IMG/VR virus record: IMGVR_UViG_3300034068_001120
Coordinates: 1-64,000 of that record
Strand: one strand, 5' to 3'
From: a virus
DNA: 64,000 bases
Shown: positions 4,745 to 48,261 of the stretch, one piece after another
How the letters are laid out: each line of letters begins with the position of its first letter
Numbering within the stretch: the first letter of the stretch is position 1
Made by a program: the position numbers and the translations under genes
The notes under the pieces: model-generated
Seen by the model: only the letters and a program-made list of their open reading frames with translations
Database searches by the model: none
Told to the model about the DNA's origin: nothing

Positions 4745-6829
4745 TTAGGCTCCGACGACTTCAGAAAAATTTACCCCGGTTCTGGTTGCAATGAAATTCA
4801 ACTGAATGAAATTAATGGATCGAGTTGGTTTGATGTAGATGTCTGCAACAAACTCATTGCGATCAATGACTTCTCCAGTATTATTAGTATCATCACACAC
4901 CACCAAGAAATCCGTAATTCCTCGGCGTTGTTGAACTGTTCGTAGGAACGGAACAACCAGATTCTTAAATTGTACTCGAGTGAATTGATCATTCTGTTCA
5001 AACAAGAAATACTTTGATGCAATTGCAATTGCCTTCTCTAGAACAATGAACAATCGTCGTACATTTATACGATCAAACGCAGATGGGCGTGTCTGCATTG
5101 TCTTGTCTCCAAACAGAATCGTTCCTTGACCAGGAAAGGACACAACGGGATTTACTTGCTTTTGGTAAAGTTCATCTCTGTGTGCTTCTGATGATGGATT
5201 ATAAGGCAACTTAACAACATTCTTAATTTGACCACGATTAAATCCTGCTGGACTAAACCAAGCCTCATTCGTGAATTCTGTTCGTGCCACAAGACCTGCA
5301 ATATCTGGATTAAGTGGCATAGCTCGAACAACATTATTATATGTGTCCAGTTGCAATTTCCATCCACTGTCCATTACTGCATAAGATGAATTAATATTAA
5401 GCGAATTCTCTCTATATGTTTTAATGTTATTAAGAGCCGCATACGGAAGTGCATTTACTACACTTGCAGCCGAAGGCGATGCAAATGCCATACAATCTTT
5501 GCGTGGTTCCACAATGTTTTGTATAATCATTGTAGCCAAAGTAGAACTTGCGTCGCCAAGAGGCATAAGAGAAACGTCTACTTCATCTGGATTTGCAAAA
5601 TTCATCCAACCACTAGTATATCTTTCGGAATCTGTTGGAGCGGTATCGCTTGCTCCGTCGAGATTAACACACAACACATTAGTATTAACCAACGAATTGG
5701 ACTTTGATACTGATGTTATTGCTGATAGATTTCCAAAGGTGGCGGAAGCCAATTGCGCTGTTCCTGATGAAGAACCAAGATCAACTGGCAATGCCCAAAT
5801 ATATTCCGACTGGTTATTGATAACTGTTTTCCAGTAATTGCTAGATCCATCGGAATTTACTGCATCCGATGCTCTGGAAACGCCTTCGAATTTTTCTATA
5901 ACACTACCAGCAACTCCAGTCCACAATCCCAATTTATCGCTGATTACAACATTAATCAGATCATTGCTTCCACCCTTTGAGGCTGCATCGCTAGTAGAAG
6001 TTGCAGTTGTCGAGACTTGTCGTGCATAAGCAGACTTAATCGTCATTGTGGCACCAGCAGCCTGAGTCACTGGAATTCCACCATCCACAAACAAATTCAA
6101 GTAACCGAATGTTGGTCCCGCTGGAAGTGCCATGTCCCATCCAGAAGTAACTCCAAAGAAATTACGAAATGTAGCAGTTACAGCAACCGATGTTGGAGCC
6201 GCAGAAGATCCAATTACTCGTGTAACGCCATTCAAGGTAGCAGAAGTACCATCATCAAAGGTAATCAAGTCACCGACACTGAAGCTTCTGGCTTCCGATG
6301 TGGATCCAACGTACATTCTAAGGAATGTTGCACCTGCTGTAGCCTGATAAGCAAGACTCGCTCCTGTAGTTCCAGCACCACTCACAACAGCGCATTGAAT
6401 ACTATTTCCAAGAACACCTGGATATTTTGAAGCAAATAGTGCAGGAAGAGTTAGGCTTGGTAGAGTTGTATTGACCAAAACTGAAGTTGCAAAACTTGTT
6501 GCATTTGGAATTTGTGCTGTTGCGTAAGCAGTAACACCAGTAACAGTGCAAGTTGCATTGTATGCCGTTGCTCCCAAAGCACGAACAACTCCGCAATTAT
6601 TTCCATATCCTAGGAAATTTGCAACACTGAAAAAGTCAACATAATTGGATGTGTCTGGTTTGCCAAAAATATTAACAAGTTCTGTTTGATTTGTAACAGT
6701 GATTACTTCATTTCCTGGACCCCAATGAAAATATCCAGCAAATCCACCAGGAGTGGATGCCACGGCAGGGATAATTGCGGTCAAATCTTTTTCTGTTATG
6801 CTTACGCCAGGGCTAACTCTAAATCCCAT
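4745..6829 (-). CDS. gp18: Tail sheath protein
   Basis: SPGVSITEKDLT, WFSPAGFNRG, LFGDKT, SAFDRINVRRLF, YIKPTRSINFIQLNF. Confidence 0.98.
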   Translation of the reverse strand: MGFRVSPGVSITEKDLTAIIPAVASTPGGFAGYFHWGPGNEVITVTNQTELVNIFGKPDTSNYVDFFSVANFLGYGNNCGVVRALGATAYNATCTVTGVTAYATAQIPNATSFATSVLVNTTLPSLTLPALFASKYPGVLGNSIQCAVVSGAGTTGASLAYQATAGATFLRMYVGSTSEARSFSVGDLITFDDGTSATLNGVTRVIGSSAAPTSVAVTATFRNFFGVTSGWDMALPAGPTFGYLNLFVDGGIPVTQAAGATMTIKSAYARQVSTTATSTSDAASKGGSNDLINVVISDKLGLWTGVAGSVIEKFEGVSRASDAVNSDGSSNYWKTVINNQSEYIWALPVDLGSSSGTAQLASATFGNLSAITSVSKSNSLVNTNVLCVNLDGASDTAPTDSERYTSGWMNFANPDEVDVSLMPLGDASSTLATMIIQNIVEPRKDCMAFASPSAASVVNALPYAALNNIKTYRENSLNINSSYAVMDSGWKLQLDTYNNVVRAMPLNPDIAGLVARTEFTNEAWFSPAGFNRGQIKNVVKLPYNPSSEAHRDELYQKQVNPVVSFPGQGTILFGDKTMQTRPSAFDRINVRRLFIVLEKAIAIASKYFLFEQNDQFTRVQFKNLVVPFLRTVQQRRGITDFLVVCDDTNNTGEVIDRNEFVADIYIKPTRSINFIQLNFIATRTGVNFSEVVGA

Positions 6830-6901
6830 TTTAGTATCTCCTTAGTGAATTCTGTAGTCTGTTCTGTATTATGTATTATTTTTCTATTCTTGGATTAGCC
6901 T

Positions 6902-9084: not shown

Positions 9085-9897
9085 TCACCATGGAGCAGTA
9101 GTAATGCCGTTCGGTGGATTTAAATATTCAATATAGGAAGAAGTTGCCGAATATGCAGTTATACCAGAACTGGCTCCCAGTGATCCTGTAACTCCTAGTG
9201 GTCCAGTGATTCCTGTTATAATCGTGGCATAGTCCGCAGTAAGTCCTGATAAATCATCTGAAAATACATCAAAATTATTGAGATTTGCATAAACCGTTCT
9301 GATTTCTTTGTGTGACTTTATTTCACCAAAGATATATGCCTTCATTGTAAAATTAAGAGTAAAGGTTATTACTCGACGAGTAGATAATTCTCCTTCGTAC
9401 TCGTCCTGTGATAATATACCATTCAAATAAACAGGAACATCTAATTTATCATTCACTCCTCCGAAATTTATTGTTACAACAAATTCTGGAGAAAAATACG
9501 GAAGAATTTGTTCAATGATTCTAAGACCATCTTCCATATTTCTAACATGAATATATAATCCAAAATCAATATTGTATGGAACTTCTGCATACGAATAACT
9601 TTGACCAGTTGAATTGGATCGGGATATTGTTTTCGAAAGACTGTTTCTTTTTCTGGCAGGATCATATACGAATCCTGTAATTTCAAAACCAATTCTTGGA
9701 AGAGTGGTTTCCATTTGTTGCTCTTGAAGAGATACAGCAATTCTTGCAAGAAATTTTTCTTTTGCAGAATAAGAAACAGGAACCAGAATCTTTTTGGTTC
9801 CACCGCTTTCTACTCGTTCAATTTCTATACTATTAAAGAGCGAGCCGAATGCCACGACCAATTTTCTAATTGTTCCGTTATAGAAAGATCCGAACAT
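9085..9897 (-). CDS. gp15: Tail sheath stabiliser / tail terminator
   Basis: FYNGTIRKLVVAFGSLFN, LPRIGFEITGFVYD, IIEQILPYF; start moved to MFGSF. Confidence 0.94.
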   Translation of the reverse strand: MFGSFYNGTIRKLVVAFGSLFNSIEIERVESGGTKKILVPVSYSAKEKFLARIAVSLQEQQMETTLPRIGFEITGFVYDPARKRNSLSKTISRSNSTGQSYSYAEVPYNIDFGLYIHVRNMEDGLRIIEQILPYFSPEFVVTINFGGVNDKLDVPVYLNGILSQDEYEGELSTRRVITFTLNFTMKAYIFGEIKSHKEIRTVYANLNNFDVFSDDLSGLTADYATIITGITGPLGVTGSLGASSGITAYSATSSYIEYLNPPNGITTAPW

Positions 9898-9898
9898 T

Positions 9899-10804
9899 CT
9901 AGTACGCTCCTTCGCTAAAAGGATCGGTATCTGTGAAATCAAATATCTGATCTCTATTCGTTTCTAGATCTATTTCATCATTATCTTGTTGGGCCACATT
10001 AGAAACCTTTATGTTGGAATCTGTTATAGAACTGATGACAAATTGCGTTCCAGAAGAATCTCCAGTAACAACATTGCCAACAGAGAATGTGCCTGTTGCC
10101 ATACGAACATTCACGGTAATTGTCTTCGGTGATGTTGTTTTGGCAATAACAGATCCTTGTGCCGATGGTTCTAAGGAACTTCCAACAAATACTCGTTCTC
10201 CCACGGTGTAAGCCGAACCAGTTATTCCAGCCGTGAGCCCAAATATCTGTGCATAATCAGAAGAAAAGAGTGCACCCTGATCTATATCGGTTTGTCCTGT
10301 AATAATTTCTTCTTGATTGTAGATGAATCGCTGACAAGATAATTGAAATATTGACTTTAATCCTAATGGATAGAAAGGCATTTCTTTTTCTACGAATTTT
10401 ATTTCAAAGAATGCCTTGGCATAATCAAAATAAATTAAATCGCCTTCTCTGGGTGATCCTAGTTCTCTGATATTTTGATTGTGAGACATAACTTCAAGAA
10501 ATCTTCGTTGAGAAACAATAAAAGTTCCTTCATCTGGAATTTCTAATCCAAATCGAGAAATTAAATGTCCAGTAGCAGGAGGAGCAGGAGCAAATCCAGC
10601 ATCAGGTGAATTAAAATACATTTCAATTCTATTAATGTCCGTAAACTTAGACACCACATCGCCGAGTAGGGTATCTTGTGATACTAATTCTCGTGGAATG
10701 TAAATATAATCATATCCATGAATTTTAATTGCTTCTATGGTAAGACTATCAATTAATCGTTGTTCACTAGGAACATGCTTTCGAAAATATGGATTCGTTG
10801 TCAT
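9899..10804 (-). CDS. gp14: Neck protein
   Basis: EAIKIHGYDYIYIPR, PREGDLIYF, FEIKFVE, DFTDTDPF. Confidence 0.93.
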   Translation of the reverse strand: MTTNPYFRKHVPSEQRLIDSLTIEAIKIHGYDYIYIPRELVSQDTLLGDVVSKFTDINRIEMYFNSPDAGFAPAPPATGHLISRFGLEIPDEGTFIVSQRRFLEVMSHNQNIRELGSPREGDLIYFDYAKAFFEIKFVEKEMPFYPLGLKSIFQLSCQRFIYNQEEIITGQTDIDQGALFSSDYAQIFGLTAGITGSAYTVGERVFVGSSLEPSAQGSVIAKTTSPKTITVNVRMATGTFSVGNVVTGDSSGTQFVISSITDSNIKVSNVAQQDNDEIDLETNRDQIFDFTDTDPFSEGAY

Positions 10805-11565: not shown

Positions 11566-13839
11566 TTACGTGGTTCTCATAATAAAGGCAAGAGCATAGT
11601 ATGGTGGAAGATTTGCAGTGTTTATTTCAGGCACCACAGTAACATCTGCTTCACTGAAAGCAGCCCCAGTATTCTTTTTAGGTTTGGATGTATTATATCG
11701 CTTTAGAGTATCACCACCTTGTGCACCTCCTGCACCGATATTCGTACCCGCATAATTATCAATTGCACTGATACCAGGAGTATTGTCGTCCATAGCATAA
11801 ACATGTCTGTGATCCACAAGACTTGCTGTTGCAGATCCACCTGATGCAGCAACAGCATATCCTCCTGTACCTGCACCTGCACTTGCACCAACAACAAATC
11901 TACCACGAAGATCAGGAGTTCCATTGGATCCATTGCAAAGTGCCCAAGATGTGGGAATATTAGCAACAGTACCACTCCACATAATAATTCCACCTACTGG
12001 AATAGTTCCATTTCCAACAAATGAAGTTGCATTTACCGCACCACTCACATCCAACTTCACAGGCATAGTCGTCAAAGAAGTCTCTATTATTTTCTTCGTA
12101 TTTGCGCCTTGTTTAACGTCTGCTGTTGAAATTAAATTAGGACTATTATAAAGACTAGTCAAAAACTGGCCTTCCCACAAAGTTTGATCTGCAAAATTTC
12201 CACCATATCCAATATCAATTCTATCCACTGACCACGTAGGCCACTCGGTCAATAAGGTATTATCGCCTAATACAATAACAGCATTTGTTCTGGAATTGAT
12301 GGGTGATGCCGCATCGCCGCCATTCAAAAATCCTGTCTGTATTATATTAAATGGAGTATTTCCTGTGCATTCGACATCACAATTGTACCAAGTCACATCA
12401 TTATTAATGGTCTTAATGTATCCAGAAACAATACACTGCCAATTTTTCATTCCTCCTGAGCCACCAGATACGGATGCAGGCATTTTTCTATTCATGCCGC
12501 TGATAGTTACTTTGACAAAATGATCATATTGGGGATTCGTTGCAGATGTCGTTGTTCCAGGAGGAAGTATAATAACAAACGGACCACAACTAGCACTGGT
12601 TCCTGGTTCAATACTAGTATGGAATCGTAATAAATTGGTGGTGGAACTTGTGATATTAGAATCACCAACAGAGACAGTTTTTACCACGGCTCCTGAAGGA
12701 TACGTTAAATATGTTGTCTTGTATTGATTTCTCACAGGAAGAATAGTGGATCCAGTTCTAGTCTGTGCAATGGTTCCGTTATAAGTTATTCCAGTAGTAA
12801 CAAACAATCCACTCGCAGTAATACCAGCAGCAGAGATGCCCGTGGCTGTCAAAAGAGTTGCGCTCATTGTTGTGCCAGTTAATCCTCCTGCCACAGTGAA
12901 TACCAGATTAGAATTTGCAGAAAATCCTGCTGCAATTCCACTACCATCATTATACTGAATCATTCCAGTGGAGCCTGCAGGTTCTGCCGTATCCCATACT
13001 AATTGACCTGCGCCATTGGTTCCCAATAATTGTCCATTCGTTCCATCACTAACAGGAAGATACCAAGTGGTGGGAGTCGTAATCGCTGGAGGTGCTTGGA
13101 ATCCCACTGTTTTTCCTGTTGAATCCGTGAATACAAAACTTCCACCACAAACACCACGGAAATCTTTGCCTAGAAAATTTCCTTCAAAGGTACCAGTAAC
13201 ACCAGAATGAATATTGGTTCCCGAGGTTGATCCATTGAGCAGATATACAAAATTTCTGGATCCGGCTTTAGCACCAAAGAATCCTAAAGATGCTCCAGCG
13301 GAGTTGTCTGTGTCTGGATAGAAAAATGCAATGCCTCGATCCATCGCACGTGAACCAGCACCAGTTACACCAACTCCCCCAGTTTGTCCAAGCGATATAA
13401 CAGCATCGGCTATTGTAAAATTTGCACTACTCGTAGAAGTCAGGGTTCCGCCAACGAAAAAATTACCAGTAACTGTTACATGTGAGAGTATAGTAGCCGA
13501 ACCACCAGCAACACCCATTGTAATTGCAGTTGCATTAGAACCAATTGTAAGAGTAGATCCAGCGGCATTAAAGGTATGAAATGCTGCCTGTGTTCCTCGA
13601 ATTCCCGCCGAGAATGTATGTCCTGTAAGAACTGTTGGAAGCAAAGCTGCAGTTAATACTCCTTCTGCATCGGTTGTTGTTAATGAAACACTACTAGACG
13701 AAACACCAGAATATACCTTTAACTTATTGAGTTTATAGGCTGATAAATTACTTTGATCTTTCCAAGTATTAAACGTATTGTTTAATGCAACTTCTGGGAT
13801 TGAATAATTATTGGAGTCTGGTCCTGTATTTACTGGCAT
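11566..13839 (-). CDS. Tail fibre / whisker-like protein with C-terminal collar domain
   Basis: N-terminal NNTFNTWK, Gly/Thr-rich body, C-terminal PVGGIIMWSG...WALCNGSNGTPDLRGRFVVG...NLPPYYALAFIM. Confidence 0.8.
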   Translation of the reverse strand: MPVNTGPDSNNYSIPEVALNNTFNTWKDQSNLSAYKLNKLKVYSGVSSSSVSLTTTDAEGVLTAALLPTVLTGHTFSAGIRGTQAAFHTFNAAGSTLTIGSNATAITMGVAGGSATILSHVTVTGNFFVGGTLTSTSSANFTIADAVISLGQTGGVGVTGAGSRAMDRGIAFFYPDTDNSAGASLGFFGAKAGSRNFVYLLNGSTSGTNIHSGVTGTFEGNFLGKDFRGVCGGSFVFTDSTGKTVGFQAPPAITTPTTWYLPVSDGTNGQLLGTNGAGQLVWDTAEPAGSTGMIQYNDGSGIAAGFSANSNLVFTVAGGLTGTTMSATLLTATGISAAGITASGLFVTTGITYNGTIAQTRTGSTILPVRNQYKTTYLTYPSGAVVKTVSVGDSNITSSTTNLLRFHTSIEPGTSASCGPFVIILPPGTTTSATNPQYDHFVKVTISGMNRKMPASVSGGSGGMKNWQCIVSGYIKTINNDVTWYNCDVECTGNTPFNIIQTGFLNGGDAASPINSRTNAVIVLGDNTLLTEWPTWSVDRIDIGYGGNFADQTLWEGQFLTSLYNSPNLISTADVKQGANTKKIIETSLTTMPVKLDVSGAVNATSFVGNGTIPVGGIIMWSGTVANIPTSWALCNGSNGTPDLRGRFVVGASAGAGTGGYAVAASGGSATASLVDHRHVYAMDDNTPGISAIDNYAGTNIGAGGAQGGDTLKRYNTSKPKKNTGAAFSEADVTVVPEINTANLPPYYALAFIMRTT

Positions 13840-14035: not shown

Positions 14036-17000
14036 TTAACTCACAAAACTAGCAACTCGTATACTGCGAACAGCAGGAGTCTGATAATATGTTGCAGGAA
14101 CGGCAGTAGATGCAAGAGATATTTTAATTTGATAGGAAGAAAATGCGGTTCCTAATGTTATGCCGTATGTTCCTGTACTATAATCTAAATCTGATCCACT
14201 CACAGGAGTAGAAACGGATCTGGTTAACGCATTCCAAGTCTTTGTTTGAATTTGTGCTTCTCCTGCTGTGGAAACTCTATAATATACTTCTAATGATGAT
14301 CCACTCGGAGTATTTGTGTCCACAAAAATTGCAAGTCCATTTGAGTTCACGGCATCCACGGCAACAATACGACTAATATATTGTGACGGAGAGCCAGTAG
14401 CAACTCGCATAGCAATTCCAGTGGCATACATTGCTTGTGTATCAACTACAGGTGAAACAAATCCAGTACCATTAAAGCTATATTGAAGATTAAATGCTGT
14501 TGAAGGAATTGATGTCATATAAATGTTTTCATTATTTTTAAATGCAAGACTTGTTGAGTCTGTGAATTGTCGGGAAATACCACAACCAGCAGGAATCACT
14601 TCTGGAGAACTAAACTTTAATATTTGCTTTGCCAGATTATTTGTCAGTGTTGCATTAAATCTACTAGAAGCACCAGTTTCAAATACGCAACGATTTACAT
14701 TAAACATAAGATCAGTTGAGTTTTCTGCAACAGAAAGTCCCATGGAAGTAGAAGTATATAAAGTTCCTACCAGTTGATTATTTCCAACGCGACCACCTGT
14801 AGAATCTCCACTTGCTAATGCATTGTATCCAGAGTCTGCTGCATATAAAGAATATTTCTGAGAATTAGTACTAATGCATATTGCATATTCTCCTGGTTCT
14901 AAGAATACAGGACTAGAAAATGTAAAGGTTGTGGCATATGGAGTTACTGAGTCTGCCGTTACACCTGCAGACAAAAGTGTCACGGTGGAAAACGGTAATA
15001 CCACCGAAGGAGACGGATATCCAGATATAGTTGGTCTGATTTGTACGGTGACAGGAAGCACAGAATCTTTTTCGGAAAAGAACAATTCCACGCTCTTGAT
15101 AAAGAGTCCTTCTGGATTACTTTTCTTGTCAACGAAGAATGTTTGTGAAAGTGGATCTGCCCATTGTGAATTTTCTAAAATATCAACAGAAAACTCTCTT
15201 GCAAATGGATTCTTTACAATTCCATCACTTGATACAGTTTGTCTTCTGAGTACAGGTGGACGAGTAGAATAAGATCCAGAATCTCGTTGATCCAAAGCAC
15301 CAACACAATAATATGTTGCTTCGGCTGCCGTGGTTGCATTTTCATTAGTCGAAGAATCTACCAGTCGAACAATCTTCTCTCCTGCGGTATAGGTATTTGC
15401 CGGAATGTTGAATGTAGCACCGCAAGTTCCATATGCGTCACTTGATAATCCACTCTTTACAACATCGCCATCAAAATAAATTGAAAGTCCTGTTGTTGAT
15501 GGTTTAAGACCAAATGCAGTGAATGTTATTCCTGTTGTTGCTGGAATATATTGAACAATACTACGATCCACTATTTTTGTACCAACTCTGGTTTTAATTC
15601 TATTCTTCAGACGAGACATCTTCATACGAGTACTAAGATTCTCATCTATTCCAATTATTGTGCGACTTATCCCAGCAGATGCATTACCCGAATTAATATT
15701 GGGAATAACCGAGGAAGATGCAACATGAGGGGTTTTAAGATTTTGTTTTTGTACGTCATCTTGTTCTTGATTATTGTCTTCTATTCCTGTCCACATACTC
15801 TCCCAATCATTCCATTGGGTACCGAATCCTCGTGAATTGTCCGCATTAGATCCCAACCAATTATCATTTTCGCCTAATGCATTTGTTTTTACTATTGGAC
15901 GATATGCAACATCGTATACCGTAGCAACCGAAGGAGTTAATTTGGCAAATCCAAGCCAATTAATTGTATTGGATGGATTAACAATAATCTGCTTGGTTGA
16001 TTCTCCATTTTCAATATAGGGAGTTTGTGTATAACTCAATGTAATCAAACCATCTGCTGATAACGTAGTTCCAGTATAAGCATAACCACCCAACGAAACT
16101 GTTGATGGTGTAAAAAATGGACGCAATTCACCTGTTTCATAATCAACAGAACATATATGATCTCCAGAAGCAACATCGCCAATAGAATGTCCCACAAATT
16201 CTTCAGAAAATATAGAAGTTTTTAATGGTTCTGTAGCAGCTCCTGCCAATGTTTTAATGGATTTTGAATCTGTTTCCAATTCAGACAAAGATAATTTGGC
16301 AAAAACTTCCACATCATCAATACGTTTTTCTATTTTTCCAATATCCTGCATGGTGTATCGCTTATTGTCTGTTGCGGTAAACAATACATCTCCTGCATTA
16401 TGTGTATATGCTGGTATCGAAGCCGTACCAAGAACCATAGCATCAATTGGATCTGGTGGAACCGAAGGAGATATATCTGGAGTTCCCGTAACTGTTAAGA
16501 ATTCTGCTGTTCCATCTGTTGGATCAGTTCGTAGGCATATCTTGTCTATTCTAGGAAGATAATGAGTATAGGATACTGTTGTGGATTTTTCTGTTCTGAA
16601 TGGTTTAAAGAGTGGAGTAGTTGCAGTTAATCCAGAATGCCTGAAATCTAGGCAATTAGCAAGAGAAACCGTTTTACCAGTTTTTGGACTTGTGAATAAA
16701 GGAACATTATCATACGAAACTCCAATGTATGAAGTTGCACCAATGAAAGGAGCGGCCGCTAATCCACCATGAAGAAAATAATTATAACCAACAGACAATG
16801 TTCCTGATGTGTTAAAAGCATCCCAAGCGGTTTGTTTGGATGACTTTACCATTATGCGAGAATAATTATAATGAGTATCAGTTTGTCCGTCATCTAATTC
16901 AAAATAATCTGATATATCTGTAGGACCTATACTATGGGTAATACCTGTTATAGAATAGACATCGGCTTTTGATAGCGTGTATACACTGCGTCCATTTTCT

Positions 17001-18910
17001 AGGGTGTTTGCATTGTATGCAATTGCCGAATCTGTTGCAGCCGTCGAAGTTTTCGTTCGTATAGAAGAACTGCTTATAGTGGACGGTTTATATACAACTG
17101 GAACCAAGACACGTAGGTTTCCGCTAGTAAATCCTGAAGGAGTAGTACCGCCATTATAAGAAAAAACAACACTATTAGCACCTGACGTTATACTGCTTGT
17201 TCCAGCATGGTAAGCTGGAAAAAATACTTGTCCTGTTGCATTCGATATTGCAATATCTGCTAGTGTGGTGTTTGGATCAAGGTCAATATATGCGTCAGAT
17301 ACTGTCTCAGAGAACATGCTACCGCTATCAGATATCGTGAATGTTGTTCCGCCCGCAGCAGTGTGTATGTAATTGGTTAAAGTATTCGTCCATAATCTTC
17401 CAGGAGCCGCTACTGCAGTGACTTGATCTATGGCATATCCAGTCGTCATTTCATATACAAGAGATTGCGAGTTTGGAGATTGAACTTGTGCAAAGGTAGT
17501 TCCAGTTCCAGAGGGAACAAATGTACCGCAAGTATGTCCTGCGCTCCAACCCGTTCCATTATTATCAACAAAATACAATGCACCACTACTAGCTCCAGCA
17601 ACTGAACCACTTAATCCATACAAATATAAATTGTAATTATATCCTGTAGTAGATCCAGTACTCACTGGAATGGCACCATGAACATAGCCTGTTGCAACTA
17701 CACCACTGGAAGAATTTCTAAATTTTACTTCTACAGAACCAGAATTAATATTCACTAGATTATTGGCAAATGTTGTTCCGAATGCGGCACTAGTGCCCAT
17801 ACAAACACCCACATAATTACCCAATCCAAATCCATAAGTTAAATTTGTTTCTGTTTGTGTTGTTCTGGCTTTTGCAACATTCAAGGTTATTGGATATTGT
17901 GATTCTAATTCGTGTCCTTGCACGTATGCTTTACCAGGACCAATTACAAATCCCAAAGTAGAACCACTCAAATTCTTTACCTTTACATCAAATGGCCTAA
18001 CAATATACGAGCCAGATTCGTCAAATGTTCTACGAGATAATGCAGATTCTATCTCGGCATAGGATACTCGTTCAGATTTTCTTGTGATTTTGCCTGCATC
18101 GAATCTAATCAATTCAATGAAATCATTTGCTTCTGAAGTAATGCCAGATTGCGTTAACATTAAATCTATCTTATAACGATCTCCACCTGGTGCATTATAA
18201 TTAGACGAGCCAATTGCAGGATCCTTTAAGGTAGAATCTTCTTCTGCTGTTACTGTATCTCGTACCACATCAAATCCAACACGAGTAGTAAGAAGATTAA
18301 AAGAAGCGGCGGTTCCACCGAATGACACATCCAGTGTGCTACCAGATATACGATATGGTGTAAACTTTTGTGTTCCTACTGGAGTAAAAAATCCATCAAC
18401 ATAAAAAATACCATCGGCAACGGTAATCAATTTGCATGATTCAGTGGTTCCAATAACGCCATTCGTTAATGTGGTGCCACCCAATGAAATGTTTCCCGCA
18501 CTAAAAGAATAGCCAGAGGTGAAGTCGACTATTACTACTAAATGGGTAGTACTACCTCCAGACGAAAGAGGTACATAATGAACTATCTTTGCTTTTGTTG
18601 TGCTTTGAACTAATTCAGATCCGATTAGGGTATCATAATCCAATACAGCGGCATCATTAAGACTGGCAATAGTTATTCTTATGGCAGAGGTAGTTCTGAC
18701 ACTTATTCCACCACCAATAATGCGAGATCCATCTTTGAAGAGATGATCCCCAACCTTTGAAACTTGGTTTTGTAATATAGATTGTGCTTGAGTTATTTCT
18801 CTGGCTTGCAAAGCATAGCCAGGTCGGAATAGAACACGTAAAAATCCAGAATCAGTAGTAAAATCGTCGTAATACGGATTTATATTGAAAATACTAGGGT
18901 CGTATGTCAT
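14036..18910 (-). CDS. Large virion structural protein, VrlC-like / DUF4815 family
   Basis: NINPYYDDF...RVLFRPGYALQAREITQAQSILQNQ, RRTFDESGSY, PGKAYVQGHE, DPLSQTFFV. Confidence 0.88.
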   Translation of the reverse strand: MTYDPSIFNINPYYDDFTTDSGFLRVLFRPGYALQAREITQAQSILQNQVSKVGDHLFKDGSRIIGGGISVRTTSAIRITIASLNDAAVLDYDTLIGSELVQSTTKAKIVHYVPLSSGGSTTHLVVIVDFTSGYSFSAGNISLGGTTLTNGVIGTTESCKLITVADGIFYVDGFFTPVGTQKFTPYRISGSTLDVSFGGTAASFNLLTTRVGFDVVRDTVTAEEDSTLKDPAIGSSNYNAPGGDRYKIDLMLTQSGITSEANDFIELIRFDAGKITRKSERVSYAEIESALSRRTFDESGSYIVRPFDVKVKNLSGSTLGFVIGPGKAYVQGHELESQYPITLNVAKARTTQTETNLTYGFGLGNYVGVCMGTSAAFGTTFANNLVNINSGSVEVKFRNSSSGVVATGYVHGAIPVSTGSTTGYNYNLYLYGLSGSVAGASSGALYFVDNNGTGWSAGHTCGTFVPSGTGTTFAQVQSPNSQSLVYEMTTGYAIDQVTAVAAPGRLWTNTLTNYIHTAAGGTTFTISDSGSMFSETVSDAYIDLDPNTTLADIAISNATGQVFFPAYHAGTSSITSGANSVVFSYNGGTTPSGFTSGNLRVLVPVVYKPSTISSSSIRTKTSTAATDSAIAYNANTLENGRSVYTLSKADVYSITGITHSIGPTDISDYFELDDGQTDTHYNYSRIMVKSSKQTAWDAFNTSGTLSVGYNYFLHGGLAAAPFIGATSYIGVSYDNVPLFTSPKTGKTVSLANCLDFRHSGLTATTPLFKPFRTEKSTTVSYTHYLPRIDKICLRTDPTDGTAEFLTVTGTPDISPSVPPDPIDAMVLGTASIPAYTHNAGDVLFTATDNKRYTMQDIGKIEKRIDDVEVFAKLSLSELETDSKSIKTLAGAATEPLKTSIFSEEFVGHSIGDVASGDHICSVDYETGELRPFFTPSTVSLGGYAYTGTTLSADGLITLSYTQTPYIENGESTKQIIVNPSNTINWLGFAKLTPSVATVYDVAYRPIVKTNALGENDNWLGSNADNSRGFGTQWNDWESMWTGIEDNNQEQDDVQKQNLKTPHVASSSVIPNINSGNASAGISRTIIGIDENLSTRMKMSRLKNRIKTRVGTKIVDRSIVQYIPATTGITFTAFGLKPSTTGLSIYFDGDVVKSGLSSDAYGTCGATFNIPANTYTAGEKIVRLVDSSTNENATTAAEATYYCVGALDQRDSGSYSTRPPVLRRQTVSSDGIVKNPFAREFSVDILENSQWADPLSQTFFVDKKSNPEGLFIKSVELFFSEKDSVLPVTVQIRPTISGYPSPSVVLPFSTVTLLSAGVTADSVTPYATTFTFSSPVFLEPGEYAICISTNSQKYSLYAADSGYNALASGDSTGGRVGNNQLVGTLYTSTSMGLSVAENSTDLMFNVNRCVFETGASSRFNATLTNNLAKQILKFSSPEVIPAGCGISRQFTDSTSLAFKNNENIYMTSIPSTAFNLQYSFNGTGFVSPVVDTQAMYATGIAMRVATGSPSQYISRIVAVDAVNSNGLAIFVDTNTPSGSSLEVYYRVSTAGEAQIQTKTWNALTRSVSTPVSGSDLDYSTGTYGITLGTAFSSYQIKISLASTAVPATYYQTPAVRSIRVASFVS

Positions 18911-18919: not shown

Positions 18920-21274
18920 TTAAAAGCCTACCGATAGTCTAAATTCTTCATTTTGTCCTACGACTCTATCAATCGCCACTACACTGTCTATGTATAATAT
19001 TTCTCCAGAATTGGGGTTGATGTCTGGTAGAGAAACTCCTGTAACGAGATATGCACCCAAAGCAGAATATGTCGAGGAATCTCCATCAGCAATATTTTTA
19101 AACTGTCCCGTTACTTCGCTTACCCATAATGTACCATAACTAGAATTTACAAGTTCCCAAGTATACACCTTGGCACTAGCATATCCAATTGCAATTGATC
19201 CAGTCTGTCCCTGTGTAACTGTATCGCCAGTTGTGAAAGTAGAGGAAGAAAGTCCACTACCAGTTACCTGTAATGCATGCAATCCTGTATAACTAGACAA
19301 TCCAAGCGAATCAATATAAGGATCGCCTACATCTATAATTTTAAATTTACTGTCGCTTGTAAATGTCAATCCACCAGAAAGTTGGGCCGTTGTGACAAAT
19401 TCGCCGTATCTTGGAGATATAGAATTGATTTTTGCCGATGCCAACGATGATGCACCCGTCACTCCTGCCGTTGTGGATATAGCAAAGGAATTTTTTGTGG
19501 ATCGCACACCAAGAGTATATCCACCAGGTGTTATTTCACTAATACTTAAAACAATTCCTTCTGCCTCAATACTGTATCCAAAACTAATTCCCACAGAACC
19601 AGATCCAGGAACAGTAAATGTTACACCAACAGGAATAGTTTGAGTGATTTTTTCTCCAGCAGTAAATGTAGCCGTGGCATCGAGTCCTATAATATAATCA
19701 TTTGGTCTATCAGAATAATCAATAAAACTTTTAGAGTCGCTTGCAGTTTTAAGCAAAACTTTCTTGGAGGTGTCATTTGTAGATTTTATTGCATATACCT
19801 TTGCCGTGGCAAACGTTTCTAATCCCAACAAAGCAGTTGTATTGGTTGTTATGTTTGTTGCAGAGAATAAACTAGCGGATAGTGTGCTAGTAGTGGAAGT
19901 ACTTGTATTTAAAAGAAGAACATCTCTGTAAAATATATCACTAGTTCCTGCAAGTTCTCCTGGATTAGATAGTAGTGTTGGATTTTTAATAATTCCAACC
20001 TGTCTATATGATCCTCCTGATTTTATTTTTGTTTCGTCTAATGGTGTTATTCTAGCAACCATTGCAATGCGATCTGCATTCAATTCTTTTAATATATTAG
20101 CACCATGCCCTCCTTTTGGAGCAAGAACAGCAGTCAATATTGGAGGTGTTGTTTCTTGAAATGGTGTCGGAATAATATCCATGATTGCATGAGAATAATT
20201 ATATCCTGAATTTATAACATCAATTCCTTGTATAGAAAGATCATCGGCCATAATAGGAGATACATATGCTCCATCTCCATCTCCAATAATATTAATAAAT
20301 GGCAAAATTTCAATAACAGGATAATTGGAATTTCCAATAACGGATAGAGTAAATCCAATCGTATCATTCTCTATTATAAAATATCTTGAAGTTGATCCAG
20401 TTACACCTGCAGCACTAATAACACCATAATTATTTATTTGTGATATATTACCCTCGTTTGTTGCCACGCGTACTGCATATCCGTTAAATCCAGGAGAACC
20501 GCCGCCAGGCATATTTTCGCGATTAATAATTTGATTGAGGCTAGATATATCTGTAATTTCTAACTGCGTTTGTGTACTAGAAAGAGCAACTGATCGAGAT
20601 ACTAGTAGACCAGAAGTTGTGGTGGTAATTGCAACAGAATGGCGATAAATGCCGCTAGTAACTCCAGTAGCAACAGATACATCTACTCTGGATATTCCGC
20701 CATCCGCTGCTTGTAATTGTGTATTATATTGATTTTGGGTTTCCAGAACACTACTATCAGTTATATAATTGATTGGTATATAAAGTGAAGTACTGCCCAA
20801 CAAATCGGCTTCTTTAACCGTTCCAATATATTTCCAAATGTATAGATCTGCTGTTTTAAATACTGTGGAAAGTATGCTAGTCGGCTCTACTGTAGAAGGT
20901 GCTCCATCAGCATTTGATATGCATATGTAAATATTATTTTGACTATTTAATACATAGAAAGTTTCAGGAGTATCAACATTAAATAGATCAATACTATCAT
21001 CATATTGATCATAGATCTCATTAAGAGTCCAATCTCGTTTGGCAACAACATATAGAATGTCGGTTGGGTTTAATTTTTTATATCCTATTATGCTGCGACC
21101 AATTTGTTTTTCACTTTTATCAGAATCAATATAGGTATCTGGAGAATTTTCATTTGTCCAGGGTGTGCATTTTGCTATAAAAAAATAATATTGATTATTT
21201 CTATCGGTTGATATATTCTGCAGTAAATTATCGGCAGAAGAACGACTCATTGAATTTTTTATAATAGATGGCAT
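18920..21274 (-). CDS. gp8: Baseplate wedge subunit (extended)
   Basis: FYVLNSQNNIYICISN, PKGGHGANILKEL, YRQVGIIKNP, SGEILYID. Confidence 0.88.
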   Translation of the reverse strand: MPSIIKNSMSRSSADNLLQNISTDRNNQYYFFIAKCTPWTNENSPDTYIDSDKSEKQIGRSIIGYKKLNPTDILYVVAKRDWTLNEIYDQYDDSIDLFNVDTPETFYVLNSQNNIYICISNADGAPSTVEPTSILSTVFKTADLYIWKYIGTVKEADLLGSTSLYIPINYITDSSVLETQNQYNTQLQAADGGISRVDVSVATGVTSGIYRHSVAITTTTSGLLVSRSVALSSTQTQLEITDISSLNQIINRENMPGGGSPGFNGYAVRVATNEGNISQINNYGVISAAGVTGSTSRYFIIENDTIGFTLSVIGNSNYPVIEILPFINIIGDGDGAYVSPIMADDLSIQGIDVINSGYNYSHAIMDIIPTPFQETTPPILTAVLAPKGGHGANILKELNADRIAMVARITPLDETKIKSGGSYRQVGIIKNPTLLSNPGELAGTSDIFYRDVLLLNTSTSTTSTLSASLFSATNITTNTTALLGLETFATAKVYAIKSTNDTSKKVLLKTASDSKSFIDYSDRPNDYIIGLDATATFTAGEKITQTIPVGVTFTVPGSGSVGISFGYSIEAEGIVLSISEITPGGYTLGVRSTKNSFAISTTAGVTGASSLASAKINSISPRYGEFVTTAQLSGGLTFTSDSKFKIIDVGDPYIDSLGLSSYTGLHALQVTGSGLSSSTFTTGDTVTQGQTGSIAIGYASAKVYTWELVNSSYGTLWVSEVTGQFKNIADGDSSTYSALGAYLVTGVSLPDINPNSGEILYIDSVVAIDRVVGQNEEFRLSVGF

Positions 21275-31246: not shown

Positions 31247-32116
31247 TTAAACTTTCAACAAATTATCTAATTCTTTTATTGCTCGATCCTTATATTTTGG
31301 ATGAAGTAATTTTATTGTTCGTTTTGTTTCATTTAAATCCATCTCATAAATTAAATTAGATACTGCATAGGCAGTTACGGCATCTCCACTTATACCCATA
31401 TATTTCCCAATATACGTATCATAAAAGTTAGATGCAGTTGCGCCAATCGATGCACCAAAGTCAGTGGTACCATCTAATACATTGTGATAATATCCATTTG
31501 AAATGGACAATGAATCTACTATTATGGTTTCATTTGCTCCTACATCATCTGTGGGTCTATCAACTTTAAAATGATGAGCAGCCATGTACGTTTGTTCTAT
31601 TTTTCGTATATTTATTCCCAGTGTTGCGCCAGTAACTTGTATGTAAGCATTACCTGTAGAAAATTGACTGCTTTGTACAATTAGTTTGCACATCGTAGGC
31701 TCGAAGTCTTCTATTGTAGATGAGGTTCCTGCTTGTGTCAACGTAACACCAGGAATTATATCAGAATCATACAATAATCCACCACTAAGACCAGTAAAAA
31801 ATACAGAATATCCTGTGTACTTTTTCTGAATATATTCTTCCATTGTTGCTGCTGATTTATACCATCCATGATACGGATCTATTACTGTATTCATTAATAG
31901 AACAAGCCAATGAAGCAATGGATCTCCATAAAGACGTTCTGCTATGTGTTCTGGACGTTCTCCATCTTTCACATCGTATAGAATAAAAATTCCATTGCCT
32001 TCTCTGACATTATCGGACAGGGCTACTCGTCTCAACAGATTACGAGCAACAACAGGAGTAATGGTAGTTCCATTGTATATTGGATATTGTAGCACTGGAA
32101 ACTTATTAAAATACAT
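31247..32116 (-). CDS. gp53: Baseplate wedge subunit (LysM-like)
   Basis: MYFNKFP, YDVKDGERPEHIAERLYGD..LHWLVLL.N, NETKRTIKLL. Confidence 0.93.
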   Translation of the reverse strand: MYFNKFPVLQYPIYNGTTITPVVARNLLRRVALSDNVREGNGIFILYDVKDGERPEHIAERLYGDPLLHWLVLLMNTVIDPYHGWYKSAATMEEYIQKKYTGYSVFFTGLSGGLLYDSDIIPGVTLTQAGTSSTIEDFEPTMCKLIVQSSQFSTGNAYIQVTGATLGINIRKIEQTYMAAHHFKVDRPTDDVGANETIIVDSLSISNGYYHNVLDGTTDFGASIGATASNFYDTYIGKYMGISGDAVTAYAVSNLIYEMDLNETKRTIKLLHPKYKDRAIKELDNLLKV

Positions 32117-40078: not shown

Positions 40079-40540
40079 TTAGCGAACTCGGGCTTGACCA
40101 TATCCATAGACTGGTTGTGGTGCGTAACAAGCAGATCCGAATCCACTATATCCTCCTCCACAATCACCCTGATAGCCTGCATAACCACCCTGATAACCAT
40201 TTCCGTTATAGTATCCTACACCATATCCGACTCCGTATCCTGCTCCATATCCATATCCAACCCCACCCCCATTAGGATACGAATTGTAGCCGTTCATGGA
40301 ACCAAATCCCCATGATCCTCCGCCACCTTGTGTACCAATCATAACAGCAGGATTGGTGGCACTTACGACTTGTTCGCTTGTGTAATTTGGATTGTATCCG
40401 TAACCACTGCTTCGATTGGTATAGGTTGTCGTCGAACCATCTGCATTTTTTACTTCTTTGACAATATCAGTTTTTTGAATTTGACATCCAACACCAATAC
40501 TAATTACTGTTGCAAATGAGATAATATTTTGAAGTTTCAT
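40079..40540 (-). CDS. Gly/Tyr-rich putative lipoprotein
   Basis: Signal peptide ending IGVG-C; GYG low-complexity C-terminal half. Confidence 0.6.
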   Translation of the reverse strand: MKLQNIISFATVISIGVGCQIQKTDIVKEVKNADGSTTTYTNRSSGYGYNPNYTSEQVVSATNPAVMIGTQGGGGSWGFGSMNGYNSYPNGGGVGYGYGAGYGVGYGVGYYNGNGYQGGYAGYQGDCGGGYSGFGSACYAPQPVYGYGQARVR

Positions 40541-42138: not shown

Positions 42139-42387
42139 TTAGTTCAGTCCCCATACAGAAAGACTAGCAGCAGAAAACGAAACTCCTGCTACTTGTATGG
42201 GTATTAGTTGAGTTGATATTGCAGGAATATGTATTCGCTGTGCGCTTGTCTGTCCTGCAAAAGTTGCACCATAAGTATATAAATCTAGATGAGTTGGTCC
42301 TGATGGAGTTGTGCATTCCACAAAAATGCCTTTGCATTTAACCGTTGCATTAGTTGTAAGCAGTGTTAATTTAGAATAGATGTCCAT
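42139..42387 (-). CDS. Small beta-rich protein, paralogue of the next ORF; possible capsid decoration
   Basis: Shares YSK, LDLY.Y, RIH.P, PI.VAGVSF...LSVW with 42400-42654. Confidence 0.7.
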   Translation of the reverse strand: MDIYSKLTLLTTNATVKCKGIFVECTTPSGPTHLDLYTYGATFAGQTSAQRIHIPAISTQLIPIQVAGVSFSAASLSVWGLN

Positions 42388-42399
42388 GGTATGCTCCTA

Positions 42400-42654
42400 T
42401 TAAGACAACGACCATACACTTAAATTTGCACCAGCAAAAGAAACTCCTGCTACTTTTATTGGAAGTATCTGAAATGATGAGATTGGTACATGAATTCTAA
42501 CACTTGATGTTACACCAGTAGAAGTATAAGCATAAAGATCTAATGTAGTTCCACCAGCAGGGGTGTTATTAATATTATCAATCATTAATCCTTTAGATCC
42601 ACTGACAAATTGATTTGTTACTAACGGACTGACTTTTGAATATTTATCGTACAT
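42400..42654 (-). CDS. Small beta-rich protein, possible capsid decoration
   Basis: CTAAATA late-type promoter (42673-42679) and AAGGAG SD; paralogue of the previous ORF. Confidence 0.7.
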   Translation of the reverse strand: MYDKYSKVSPLVTNQFVSGSKGLMIDNINNTPAGGTTLDLYAYTSTGVTSSVRIHVPISSFQILPIKVAGVSFAGANLSVWSLS

Positions 42655-43937: not shown

Positions 43938-43940
43938 TGT

Positions 43941-44298: not shown

Positions 44299-44381
44299 TG
44301 CGGAACAAGGGACTCGAACCCTTATGCGCGGGGCGCACAAAATTTTAAATTTTGCATGTATACCAATTCCATCAGTTCCGC
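44299..44381 (-). tRNA. tRNA-Leu(UAA)
   Basis: GCGGAAC/GTTCCGC acceptor, CAAAA-TTTAAAA-TTTTG anticodon arm, long variable arm, GGTTCGAGTCC. Confidence 0.94.
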
Positions 44382-44387
44382 AAATGA

Positions 44388-44735: not shown

Positions 44736-44836
44736 AAAATTAATCTCAAAGTAGCCGATGTATGTAGATCATTAATTTGGAGAATTTGAATTTAAATACA
44801 TACTATAGATCAGAATCTATTAAATAGGAATATCAT

Positions 44837-45406: not shown

Positions 45407-45414
45407 TTAAAATG

Positions 45415-46863
45415 TTATGAAGGAAACGGAGATCCCGAATTGGTCTCTATGGTTATACCAGATGCGAATGTGGTATTAGCCAAGGCGGCTTCGGTTATTC
45501 TTATTCCGTAGTAACCAGCAGAAGGAACATAGGTAGAGCCTATTCCTGCTCCAGGAACCAACTCATCGTTTACGGGACTCAATCGTACTAAACCGCCGAG
45601 ATCTGCGCCTGCTGAAGATGATATTCTACCGTTAGTACAAATAACTCCTTGTTGACCAAATATAGAAGTAGAATCAACTACTAGTCTTCCAGATGCCAAA
45701 GAAAAATCTGAAAGCGTAACAGTTCCTCGCAATTTAACCAAAGGAGCACCTGTCTGTGTACCCGATCCCAAGGTGGCAAATTTAAAATCTGTATTGGCTG
45801 CTGGCTCTGCTTCCGTTGGATTAGTTCCTAATATAACGGTATATGGCAAAATAGTACCAAGAGATATTCCTTGCGCTCGAAGAGCACTATTCAATGTAAG
45901 ATCTGCATATGATGCTGCGTTTTGAGGAGAAAGTGCGTTCGTGTCTCCATTTCTACGAATAGACGAACTAAGTGTATATGTACTGGCTACCGATGCATCA
46001 AAACATCTAATATTTGGTGATATTGTTATAAAATTCAATCCGCTCGATGAGCCATAAGGTATAGTTGTGTTAAATATTTGTCCAAGTAAATTTACTGGAC
46101 ACGACGCAGTAACACCAGAATCTTCTATAATAGTAAATAATGGTGATATTTTTAGTTCATTCAATACTATGCCACTTTGAATCAATAGAGATTTAGCAGT
46201 ACCGCCTTCAATGCGAAGTGCCGTTTGTAATTTCCATGGTCTATCTGTTATAGAAAATGCAGGTCCATTAAAATACGATTCGCCTGCAGGAGCAACTCGT
46301 GTAAATGTTATTGGAGTATTTGCGCCCTTTGGAACTATATTAATATCGTATGCACCGTCATTTGTATCGTAAATATATGTTGCACTTCCTGCACTGACTC
46401 CTAATGGATATCCTACCAAATTAGCAGCGGTATATCCAATTGTTTCTGTTATTGAAGAGTTTCCCAAAGTTGGTCCACCGACTCTGGCATGTCCAAATAA
46501 TCCAGTTTCTAATGGCAATCCGTCGGTACTATAATTATTGAATGGTCCTATGGTTACAACAGATGCAGAGAGTATGGCATTTGAACTATTCAAACAAGGA
46601 CTTAGTACATAAGTGTATGCACCCGTTCCAGTTACCCCAGATAAAGTACTACCCAAAGTAGGAAATCGGTCTGATATGAATACTGTATCGGCTACTCCAG
46701 GAATTCCTGTTGCTCCAGTAACGCCTGAACCAACTGTACCAATACTATATGCCCAATTAGCACTCGCTCCTATGCTCGTTGCAGCAATCCATGCAACATA
46801 TGATTCGCCTGTTGTACCTTTAGGGAATCCTGCAGCCGAACCTTTCCAATAATACTTTGCCAT
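45415..46863 (-). CDS. Gly/Thr/Ser-rich beta protein, probable virion appendage
   Basis: MAKYYWKG...ANW...P...DTVFI N-terminus shared with the next ORF; AGGAG SD. Confidence 0.7.
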   Translation of the reverse strand: MAKYYWKGSAAGFPKGTTGESYVAWIAATSIGASANWAYSIGTVGSGVTGATGIPGVADTVFISDRFPTLGSTLSGVTGTGAYTYVLSPCLNSSNAILSASVVTIGPFNNYSTDGLPLETGLFGHARVGGPTLGNSSITETIGYTAANLVGYPLGVSAGSATYIYDTNDGAYDINIVPKGANTPITFTRVAPAGESYFNGPAFSITDRPWKLQTALRIEGGTAKSLLIQSGIVLNELKISPLFTIIEDSGVTASCPVNLLGQIFNTTIPYGSSSGLNFITISPNIRCFDASVASTYTLSSSIRRNGDTNALSPQNAASYADLTLNSALRAQGISLGTILPYTVILGTNPTEAEPAANTDFKFATLGSGTQTGAPLVKLRGTVTLSDFSLASGRLVVDSTSIFGQQGVICTNGRISSSAGADLGGLVRLSPVNDELVPGAGIGSTYVPSAGYYGIRITEAALANTTFASGITIETNSGSPFPS

Positions 46864-46884
46864 TTAATATTCTCCTAGAATTCT

Positions 46885-48261
46885 TTAACCAGATATAGTG
46901 CTATTGGGATGAGGAATGAATGTACATGTCGAAGATTCTATTTTTAGTCCTGCTGCACCAGTCCAACCGTATGCAAGAGCAGAACCACCCAGTATTAACG
47001 GAACGGTTCCAGTGATACCATAAAATCCTGTTGATGGTCGTCTTAAATCTAAACTGGAGTGTCCGCGCAAAATACCTGATTTAATGTTAATTGTATCTTG
47101 AGCATTTGAATTACTCAATATATTCATATGAGAATCTTCCAGTAACATATCATTAATAAAACAAGCACCCTGTATTACTATATCTGCTTCTCCTCCAGCT
47201 ACATTTGAGGTATTATCTTCCCATAAATTATAATATAATGGAGTTGTGCTTAATGAAGATGCAGTAGTTCCAACAGGATTACCAATATAAATCGTATATG
47301 CGCCTGCTGTTGTTGATGGTGGCTGAGTTTTATTAAACTTAATGCCTTTGAAGTTCTGATAATCATTTGCAGAAGACGCAGAACGATCATTTGTTGTTGA
47401 TCCCACCGTGCAATTTATAATTATTGCCGTGGTTATTCCTGTAAAATGGTTTAGCAAATTAATAGACATGTTATCACAGGTAGATCCCAATGGAAAATAT
47501 ACAGATCCAGGCTGTCCTTTGATTTCGAATGTATTAACTGTAGTAGCAGCAGCAACATTTACATCACCAAACCAATAACCATATCCATTTGGCTGAGTCG
47601 CAGTAGAAGTAACAAACTCTGGCGTAGTCCATTTTCCAATTTTTCCGGAAAGAGTTACATTCCATCTGTGCTTTGAAAAATTTGCTGTGCTGTTGGTATT
47701 ATATGACACCACCGAAGATATTTGATTGTAACTACTAGCCGTATATCCACCATTAACAATGCCCTTATATCCAACATTCCAATAATCTGGGTTAGTCAAC
47801 ATCCAAGTATCGTCTATTAATTCTAAAGATGAATACTGCCAAAATAAAGGCATAGAAACATCAGAATTAAAAGAAAATTTAGAATAGGTGTATCCCTCAG
47901 CAGGAGATCCAATTACTCCTACATTTAAATTAAATAGAGGTCCTGTAGCAGTCAATCCAGAAGTAGATCCTGCACTCACCCAGTAATAAGTAGTGCCAGT
48001 TATGCTCATGCCACCAGTCGCACAATTAGCCATAATTGGTGCCAGATTAACAGTAGAATATCCTTGTACTGGATAGGGTACTACATTATTAATATAAACA
48101 CTATCACCCGCCCATGGTGATCTTCCACTTGGTATTAGTTGGGTAAAATGTGGATTTCCACCAGTTCCGCCAATAATTTGTGGGGTAACCCAATTTTGGG
48201 CAGTATTCCAATCTCCGCCACTAGTCCCTGCTGTATTTCCTAACCAATACAATACTGCCAT
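46885..48261 (-). CDS. Gly/Thr/Ser-rich beta protein, probable virion appendage
   Basis: MAVLYWLG...WNTAQNW...P.AGDSVYI; late-type promoter upstream. Confidence 0.7.
   Translation of the reverse strand: MAVLYWLGNTAGTSGGDWNTAQNWVTPQIIGGTGGNPHFTQLIPSGRSPWAGDSVYINNVVPYPVQGYSTVNLAPIMANCATGGMSITGTTYYWVSAGSTSGLTATGPLFNLNVGVIGSPAEGYTYSKFSFNSDVSMPLFWQYSSLELIDDTWMLTNPDYWNVGYKGIVNGGYTASSYNQISSVVSYNTNSTANFSKHRWNVTLSGKIGKWTTPEFVTSTATQPNGYGYWFGDVNVAAATTVNTFEIKGQPGSVYFPLGSTCDNMSINLLNHFTGITTAIIINCTVGSTTNDRSASSANDYQNFKGIKFNKTQPPSTTAGAYTIYIGNPVGTTASSLSTTPLYYNLWEDNTSNVAGGEADIVIQGACFINDMLLEDSHMNILSNSNAQDTINIKSGILRGHSSLDLRRPSTGFYGITGTVPLILGGSALAYGWTGAAGLKIESSTCTFIPHPNSTISG

Follow-up and report, generated by a model that had tools for sequence, protein, structure and literature searches.

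A G-x-T motif in a T4-like structural module

The motif glycine-any residue-threonine (G-x-T) was examined in the virion proteins of an uncultured phage known from the IMG/VR record IMGVR_UViG_3300034068_001120. The DNA analyzed is a fragment of 102,841 bp that CheckV estimates to be 57% complete, and "the window" below is its first 64 kb. Based on Pfam and PHROGs, the window corresponds to the late structural module of a T4-like aquatic myovirus with a guanine-cytosine (GC) content of ~38%, with homologs of the sheath, gp15, gp14, gp6, gp7, gp8, gp53, VrlC, and TerL in conserved order. Among cultured phages, the nearest is Pelagibacter phage HTVC008M, whose sheath is 43.6% identical. At the DNA level, the window region had no megablast match among phage records. 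A search of viral contigs with the gp8-like protein alone returned one weak locus, and an IMG/VR search for kin anchored on the sheath found identities of at least 60% only in fragments of 20 kb or less.

An earlier note on this DNA had claimed by eye that unrelated outer virion proteins are studded with G-x-T, and had read the motif as a sequon for virion modification. The 12 proteins that were picked by eye for the motif (6,931 amino acids [aa] in total) are listed here, followed by three genes used for comparison. Counts are observed versus expected G-x-T, and ORF stands for open reading frame.

4745..6829, minus strand: tail sheath, 694 aa (Pfam and PHROG); 10 versus 5.2
9085..9942, minus strand: gp15 tail sheath stabilizer, 285 aa (Pfam T4-gp15_tss); 6 versus 1.8
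9899..10804, minus strand: gp14 neck protein, 301 aa (Pfam T4_neck-protein); 3 versus 1.7, weak alone
11566..13839, minus strand: fiber/tail-collar-like protein, 757 aa (C-terminal PHROG tail collar fiber match); 17 versus 13.5, not significant alone
14036..18910, minus strand: VrlC-like protein, 1,624 aa (Pfam DUF4815); 28 versus 16.6
18920..21274, minus strand: gp8-like baseplate wedge protein, 784 aa (PHROG); 11 versus 7.2
21302..24577, minus strand: gp7-like wedge protein, 1,091 aa (Pfam Baseplate_wedge and PHROG); 22 versus 9.7 (z 4.4)
31247..32116, minus strand: gp53 baseplate wedge protein, 289 aa (Pfam Phage_gp53); 5 versus 2.0
42139..42654, minus strand: two small unannotated ORFs, 82 and 84 aa; 3 G-x-T in each
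45415..48261, minus strand: two G/T-rich proteins, 482 and 458 aa, with no Pfam or PHROG family; 12 versus 6.6 and 13 versus 6.0
2404..4083, minus strand: 559-aa ORF, internal control, probably the portal judging by the sheath-tube-portal gene order as in HTVC008M; 0 versus 1.3
6902-8575, minus strand: large terminase TerL (Pfam/PHROGs); 3 versus 2.2
24579..26396, minus strand: gp6, 605 aa, internal control (Pfam and PHROG); 2 versus 3.8

The surplus is specific to G-x-T and to outward-facing proteins

The enrichment seen by eye was confirmed. G-x-T occurs 133 times in the 12 proteins, compared to 71.6 expected from whole-protein shuffles. Shuffling within blocks of 40, 20, or 10 residues gives 74.8-77.4 expected (z 7.3-8.5); a count of 133 was not reached in any of 500 shuffles. 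Since the signal persists down to blocks of 10 residues (z 7.3-7.5), local composition was ruled out as its origin. The earlier note had proposed T-x-G and G-x-x-T as comparisons, and neither has a surplus in the same proteins: T-x-G is at expectation (78 versus 72-78), as are GT (78 versus 72-78) and GxxxT (73 versus 72-76), while GxxT is depleted (56 versus 72-77). Among 1,140 combinations of residue pair and spacing in this set, G-x-T ranks first with z 7.3, and the runner-up has z 3.4. These scores are somewhat inflated because the proteins were chosen by eye, and the pair scan was therefore repeated on every window ORF of at least 100 aa. The unselected test still holds, with G-x-T ranking second of 1,552 combinations (158 versus 117; z 3.8).

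The DNA word GGNNNNAC is enriched solely in codon phase 0 (133 versus 72). Its other two phases and its reverse complement are at expectation, which rules out a DNA-level motif as the origin. Gly codons are used alike within G-x-T and outside of it. As a separate observation, the Thr of G-x-T in the 12 enriched genes uses the ACT codon in 51% of cases versus 35% for the other Thr residues of these genes (Fisher p 0.0007). Collagen-like Gly-x-y runs were also ruled out as the origin, as they hold only 10 of the 133 sites and masking them leaves 123 versus 67.6. One such run lies in the C-terminal tail of gp15, where residues 244-258 form five Gly-x-y triplets (G-I-T, G-P-L, G-V-T, G-S-L, G-A-S) that are unusual for gp15. 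The surplus is specific, directional, and spacing-specific, and it acts at the protein level.

In its loose extended form, [S/T/A]-G-x-T-[G/A/F/L], the motif occurs 34 times versus 6.1 expected, a 5.6-fold excess. Charged residues are avoided around G-x-T, the x position favors V, I, A, and S, and the +3 position favors G, A, L, and F. G-x-S reaches only 88 versus 69-72. The earlier note had also proposed that Thr and Cys interchange in the motif. Alternation of G-V-T with G-V-C is seen at one sheath column, in 22 of 120 homologs. Otherwise this part of the proposal found little to sustain it: G-x-C is weak and comes down to a handful of sites (8 versus 4.4; z ~1.8), half of which are in the gp7-like protein (4 versus 0.5), and relatives show no enrichment (ratio 1.07).

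When the proteins of the whole contig were compared by class, the named outer proteins had an observed-to-expected ratio of 1.86. The internal structural proteins, a class that takes in gp6, gp13, the ORFs whose position suggests portal, tube, and scaffold, and the other ORFs for tail, hub, and tape measure, are depleted (11 versus 22.2; ratio 0.49; Poisson P 0.007). The remaining 57 ORFs are neutral (56 versus 54; ratio 1.04). Such a pattern would be expected of a sequon, which should be frequent on its substrates and avoided elsewhere. The scarcity that the earlier note reported for portal, terminase, gp6, and gp32 agrees with the counts for the three comparison genes listed above and with gp32 (0 versus 0.7). 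The surplus is confined to outward-facing virion proteins of the tail, neck, and baseplate.

Another ORF of the window, 153 aa at 40079-40540 (minus strand), is 24% Gly and has a strong G-x-G periodicity (18 versus 8.6) but no Pfam family.

The surplus is a labile, clade-level trait

To compare relatives, 79 IMG/VR loci were gathered using VrlC homologs as an anchor. Loci were grouped by whole-locus G-x-T ratio into enriched (at least 1.3; 26 loci) and non-enriched (1.1 or less; 24 loci). The 26 enriched loci pool to 1,959 versus 1,260 (ratio 1.56; z 19.7; 1.51 after masking of collagen runs), with G-x-T as the top-ranked pair, and the 24 non-enriched, cyanophage-like loci pool to 0.96, a contrast that is descriptive because the groups were defined by the ratio itself. 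In HTVC008M, the genome-wide count is 275 versus 252 and no structural protein stands out. Overall, homologs from HTVC008M and the cyanophage-like loci range from 0.96 to 1.09, while those of a large uncultured clade are at ~1.5. A universal grammar of these folds was ruled out, as HTVC008M and the 24 cyanophage-like loci have no surplus. Several non-enriched loci share the 38-39% GC of the window, and GC or amino-acid composition was therefore ruled out as the driver.

The difference is also seen between orthologs. VrlC has a ratio of 1.38 in the enriched loci and 0.95 in the non-enriched loci, and the gp8-like orthogroup has 1.61 and 0.76. Orthologs of gp6 are unenriched in both groups (0.70 and 0.87). 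In the enriched relatives, gp15 orthologs have 21 sites versus 7.1 expected and gp14 orthologs have 20 versus 8.7. The 120 closest sheath homologs (59-97% identity) average 10.2 versus 5.9.

VrlC homologs have ratios of 1.38-1.50 at 53% identity or more and ~1.0-1.2 below. Many VrlC sites are gains of the close clade, and relatives carry SVV, TVT, QVN, or RVA at the aligned columns. The earlier claim of convergent gain can be kept for these lineage-specific VrlC sites, but not for about half of the sheath sites, which lie at clade-conserved columns. A quick VrlC tree places the enriched loci in one large clade, apart from the HTVC008M-type clade. Nested inside the enriched clade is a subclade (L008/L026/L010), itself among the closest IMG/VR kin, with no surplus in VrlC, gp8, or gp7. 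The trait is therefore clade-level but labile.

Two other features of the enriched relatives were recorded. In their structural proteins, CxxC ranks second among over-represented pairs (127 versus 33; z 16), and Cys and Trp are enriched near their G-x-T sites.

Sites on predicted structures

The sheath and the gp8-like protein were modeled with AlphaFold2 (mean pLDDT 68.5 and 82.6), and 21 G-x-T sites were mapped by secondary structure. Eight sites lie wholly in loops, nine cross a loop/strand boundary, three are inside strands, and one is at a helix end. In these models, 17 of the 21 sites would include loop residues and none would fall in a helix interior. Those of the sheath are in loops or at junctions of loop and strand, and five of the 11 sites in the gp8-like protein begin a strand. 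In the sheath, nine of ten sites fall within residues 86-259, a variable insertion region between the N- and C-terminal conserved domains defined by Pfam, which upholds the bias to insertions described in the earlier note. We take the counterpart of this region in T4 gp18 to be its outer protruding domains.

A collagen-like fiber and a transferase gene in relatives

The contig also encodes an 881-aa tail-fiber protein outside of the window (98346-100991, minus strand). It has 143 uninterrupted Gly-X-Y triplets, in which Y is Thr in 142 of 143 and X is mostly Pro (76) or Ser (49). A second run of 18 triplets is near the C-terminus. In Clostridioides difficile, the Thr in the G-P-T repeats of BclA3 carries beta-O-linked N-acetylglucosamine (GlcNAc) added by SgtA, a 358-aa GT-A plus TPR enzyme whose gene adjoins bclA3 and which also accepts Ser in vitro (PMC7157674). 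The fiber on this contig has the same Thr triplet type that SgtA glycosylates. The substrate part of an SgtA/BclA3-type module, with 142 G-x-T triplets, is therefore present, and a GT-A (GT2) plus TPR transferase near the substrate gene was not found in the 102.8-kb record. The setting is also a phage instead of a spore. Another difference is that the motif here is scattered in globular, non-collagen virion proteins as well, which is not described for SgtA.

Such a transferase gene was found in relatives. Three enriched records encode, inside the structural module and near fiber genes, a protein of 400-464 aa with an N-terminal glycosyltransferase family 2 (GT2) half and TPR-like C-terminal repeats, a size similar to that of SgtA. 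It has at least 391 relatives in IMG/VR. From the best 80 of these loci, chosen by the GT2+TPR gene only, the flanking proteins have 3,124 G-x-T versus 2,029. With collagen runs masked, 2,666 versus 1,823 remain (ratio 1.46; z 19.7), and T-x-G is at 1.02. A ratio of at least 1.2 was reached by 40 of 42 GT-anchored loci compared to 33 of 66 VrlC-anchored loci, and a masked ratio of at least 1.1 by 41 of 42, though the GT loci are interrelated and these statistics ignore kinship. A near-complete, GT-bearing genome of 177 kb again has its surplus limited to the structural region. The unrelated jumbo phage Tunturi_5 has a homolog 3.7 kb from a collagen-like G-x-T fiber (79 versus 30). In cultured cyanophages and pelagiphages, no homolog of the GT2+TPR gene was found. 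As for the motif and the transferase tracking each other, the gene is seen in only 3 of the 26 enriched VrlC-anchored fragments; completeness is 10-50% for most records.

The closest solved relatives of the GT2+TPR protein are GmaR of Listeria monocytogenes and SunS of Bacillus subtilis, with matches (E 4.9e-8 and 7e-5) that cover ~100 residues of the N-terminal GT2 half only. GmaR is the Listeria flagellin O-GlcNAc transferase and SunS is an S-glycosyltransferase; both act on proteins or peptides in the cytoplasm. To our knowledge, neither uses a G-x-T site. An enzyme of this type was not found in the record studied here. The 2023 study of Freeman and colleagues in Cell Host Microbe, which PMC12801897 cites, reportedly found that mycobacteriophages encode transferases that decorate their own virion proteins, including capsid and tail-tube subunits. 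These belong to another phage group and are other transferases, and we know of no G-x-T motif described for them.

Pelagimyophages have transferase genes among the tail-fiber genes of their host-recognition cluster, and structural proteins with collagen repeats, and their transferases, mostly GT8, were interpreted by the authors as modifying host lipopolysaccharide (PMC7029224). Like the phage studied here, they are T4-like aquatic phages, but cultured HTVC008M has no G-x-T surplus. O-glycosylation of G-x-T collagen repeats and glycosylation of phage virions are thus both known. Our literature search found no description of a G-x-T motif dispersed over globular T4-like virion proteins.

Some other enzyme genes were observed near fiber or GT2+TPR genes of relatives. 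In one locus, a GT4-family gene and a GT9 (heptosyltransferase-family) gene directly follow collagen-containing fibers (L181:18601-20752, plus strand). In the record G030 (L087/L090/L092), a cluster of GT10-, GT11-, GT2-, and GT7N-like genes adjoins the GT2+TPR gene. A close relative of the present phage (one fiber protein 94% identical) has a 221-aa ORF after its fiber cluster (L180:13922-14587, plus strand) with a weak match to the sulfotransferase family (E 0.002, below the cut-off). This ORF has no homolog on the present contig.

Weighing the explanations

Neither chance nor composition, repeats, or fold explains an enrichment of this strength and specificity. With a confidence not far short of even, we favor the reading that G-x-T is a selected motif on solvent-facing virion proteins and the acceptor of a soluble O-glycosyltransferase of the SgtA/GmaR type (GT2+TPR). 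This is the single best explanation because it jointly covers the outer/inner contrast, the labile distribution in the clade, the collagen-like fiber, and the link to the transferase in relatives. The enzyme would act late in infection and decorate the (Gly-Pro/Ser-Thr)143 collagen-like tail fiber. Further targets would be the lone G-x-T sites that lie in loops or begin strands in proteins of the sheath, neck, and baseplate periphery. Its gene could be located in the missing part of the genome, or the host could supply the activity. From these comparisons we infer that the phage would have such an enzyme and that Thr residues of the motif would be modified.

The sequon proposed in the earlier note is supported in part, by the surplus, its confinement to outer proteins, the VrlC gains, and the GT2+TPR protein of relatives. 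It is weakened by the lack of an enzyme here, by unenriched fibers, and by the weak Thr/Cys interchange. Several results weigh against it. Six-frame searches of the 102.8-kb record for the families GT2, GT2_3, GT1, GT9, and GT8 (PF00535, PF13641, PF00534, PF01075, and PF01501) gave no match. A tblastn search of the record with the GT2+TPR protein of relatives also gave none, and Pfam scans of ~50 of its ORFs found no transferase. GT-bearing genomes keep the transferase gene 6-14 kb from the sheath, a zone that the window covers in full and that here lacks the gene. Among the nearest enriched relatives (records of 95, 49, 35, and 57 kb), none shows a transferase either, and the earlier statement that no modifying enzyme is in the window holds well beyond it. 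The GT-bearing phages are also distant from this phage (VrlC ~31% and sheath ~50% identity), so that shared ancestry alone could account for the association. Four large G/T-rich fiber-like proteins encoded at 86-98 kb, presumably the parts of the virion with the greatest exposure, show no enrichment (57 versus 64.3; ratio 0.89), and the earlier description of the motif as pervasive does not extend to them. The clade has no surplus of G-x-S (1.02), though Ser is accepted by SgtA in vitro. About half of the sheath occurrences sit at clade-conserved columns, which fits a structural role. Finally, a Gly lies within five residues upstream of a strand start in 13 of 21 G-x-T sites compared to 44 of 102 other glycines, which is not a significant difference (p 0.15). 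Strand-start specificity was ruled out on this basis. In the models, the sites would not be buried in regular cores, a placement that the earlier note had named as refuting its sequon, but they would not be distinctive among glycines.

Since the record is 57% complete and the gene of the collagen-like substrate lies 1.8 kb from its end, the absence of a transferase applies to the record and not to the whole phage. As none was found in the record, any enzyme would have to be encoded in the 43% of the genome that is missing, or else be supplied by the host. The region beyond the contig end was approached through relatives of the last two genes, and no GT2+TPR gene was found in the T4-like records reached. 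This search met GT2+TPR genes only in a jumbo phage of 348 kb, to which a weak match (34% identity) had led, and one relative, L181, had genes of the GT4 and GT9 families instead. The ORFs neighboring the 881-aa fiber gene have no Pfam matches. Past the fiber cluster and the small ORFs after it, which include a nuclease, two adjacent ORFs of 418 and 390 aa lie at 81945-84370 of the contig (minus strand). They have no Pfam match, no informative match in the protein atlas, and no homolog in HTVC008M or the 177-kb relative.

The serious rival, which we doubt but consider a real possibility, is a structural habit of the lineage in which G-x-T marks loop-to-strand junctions and no modification takes place. 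The Gly would end a turn, the hydrophobic x would point inward, and the beta-branched Thr would sit on the exposed face, with the clade placing Gly where cyanophage-like relatives use Ser or Thr. The number of sites at or just before strand starts and the nine that straddle a coil/strand boundary agree with this, as do the residue preferences at x and +3, an enrichment of Thr and not Ser, the conserved sheath columns, and the failure to find an enzyme in the record. Non-enriched relatives have a surplus of TxT (1.28) and SxT (1.20) instead of G-x-T, and HTVC008M has TxT at z 4.8. However, the same folds in HTVC008M and the non-enriched loci lack the surplus even at equal GC, and the nested subclade has lost it. 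Internal structural proteins that contain beta structure are depleted, not neutral, and the glycines of G-x-T are placed like other glycines. A structural habit also leaves the uniform enrichment of loci that carry the GT2+TPR gene unexplained.

Another possible explanation, which we regard as unlikely, is that the motif is functional in a different way. A host enzyme could modify it, Thr could carry some other modification, or it could confer a surface property, for instance solubility or protease resistance. The motif is enriched in outer proteins, depleted in inner ones, and labile, yet no transferase is found in ~340 kb of sub-clade fragments. Nothing observed favors any particular one of these alternatives, and glycosylation specifically is indicated by the collagen-like G-x-T fiber and by the link to GT2+TPR genes in relatives. 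An artifact of composition, G/T-rich low complexity, decayed collagen repeats, a DNA-level motif, or the choice of proteins is highly improbable. The proteins were picked by eye, are rich in Gly, Thr, and Ser, and have short Gly-x-y runs in gp15 and some fibers. The controls effectively refute this explanation: the surplus survives 10-residue block shuffles and masking, the reverse and shifted motifs are flat, the signal is in-frame only, G-x-T stays near the top of the unselected window scan, and independent relatives replicate the surplus.

Implications

Returning to the glycosylation reading, we tentatively propose, at a confidence clearly below even, that O-linked sugars coat the sheath, neck, and baseplate periphery in a large uncultured clade of aquatic T4-like phages, attached at a minimal G-x-T tag borrowed from collagen-like fibers. 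The tag would have been gained at many independent positions and lost in some sublineages, and the transferase gene of this phage would be located off the fragment. If the sites are unmodified, the motif is a clean case of a strong, lineage-specific, and labile short-range sequence bias that needs a structural explanation. If the proposal is true, a three-residue tag would set a glycan coat on whole T4-like virions and not just on their fibers. This coat would have consequences for host recognition, for the stability of the particle, and for its escape from grazing or binding in natural waters, and G-x-T would provide a simple sequence signature to predict glycosylated phage proteins in metagenomes.

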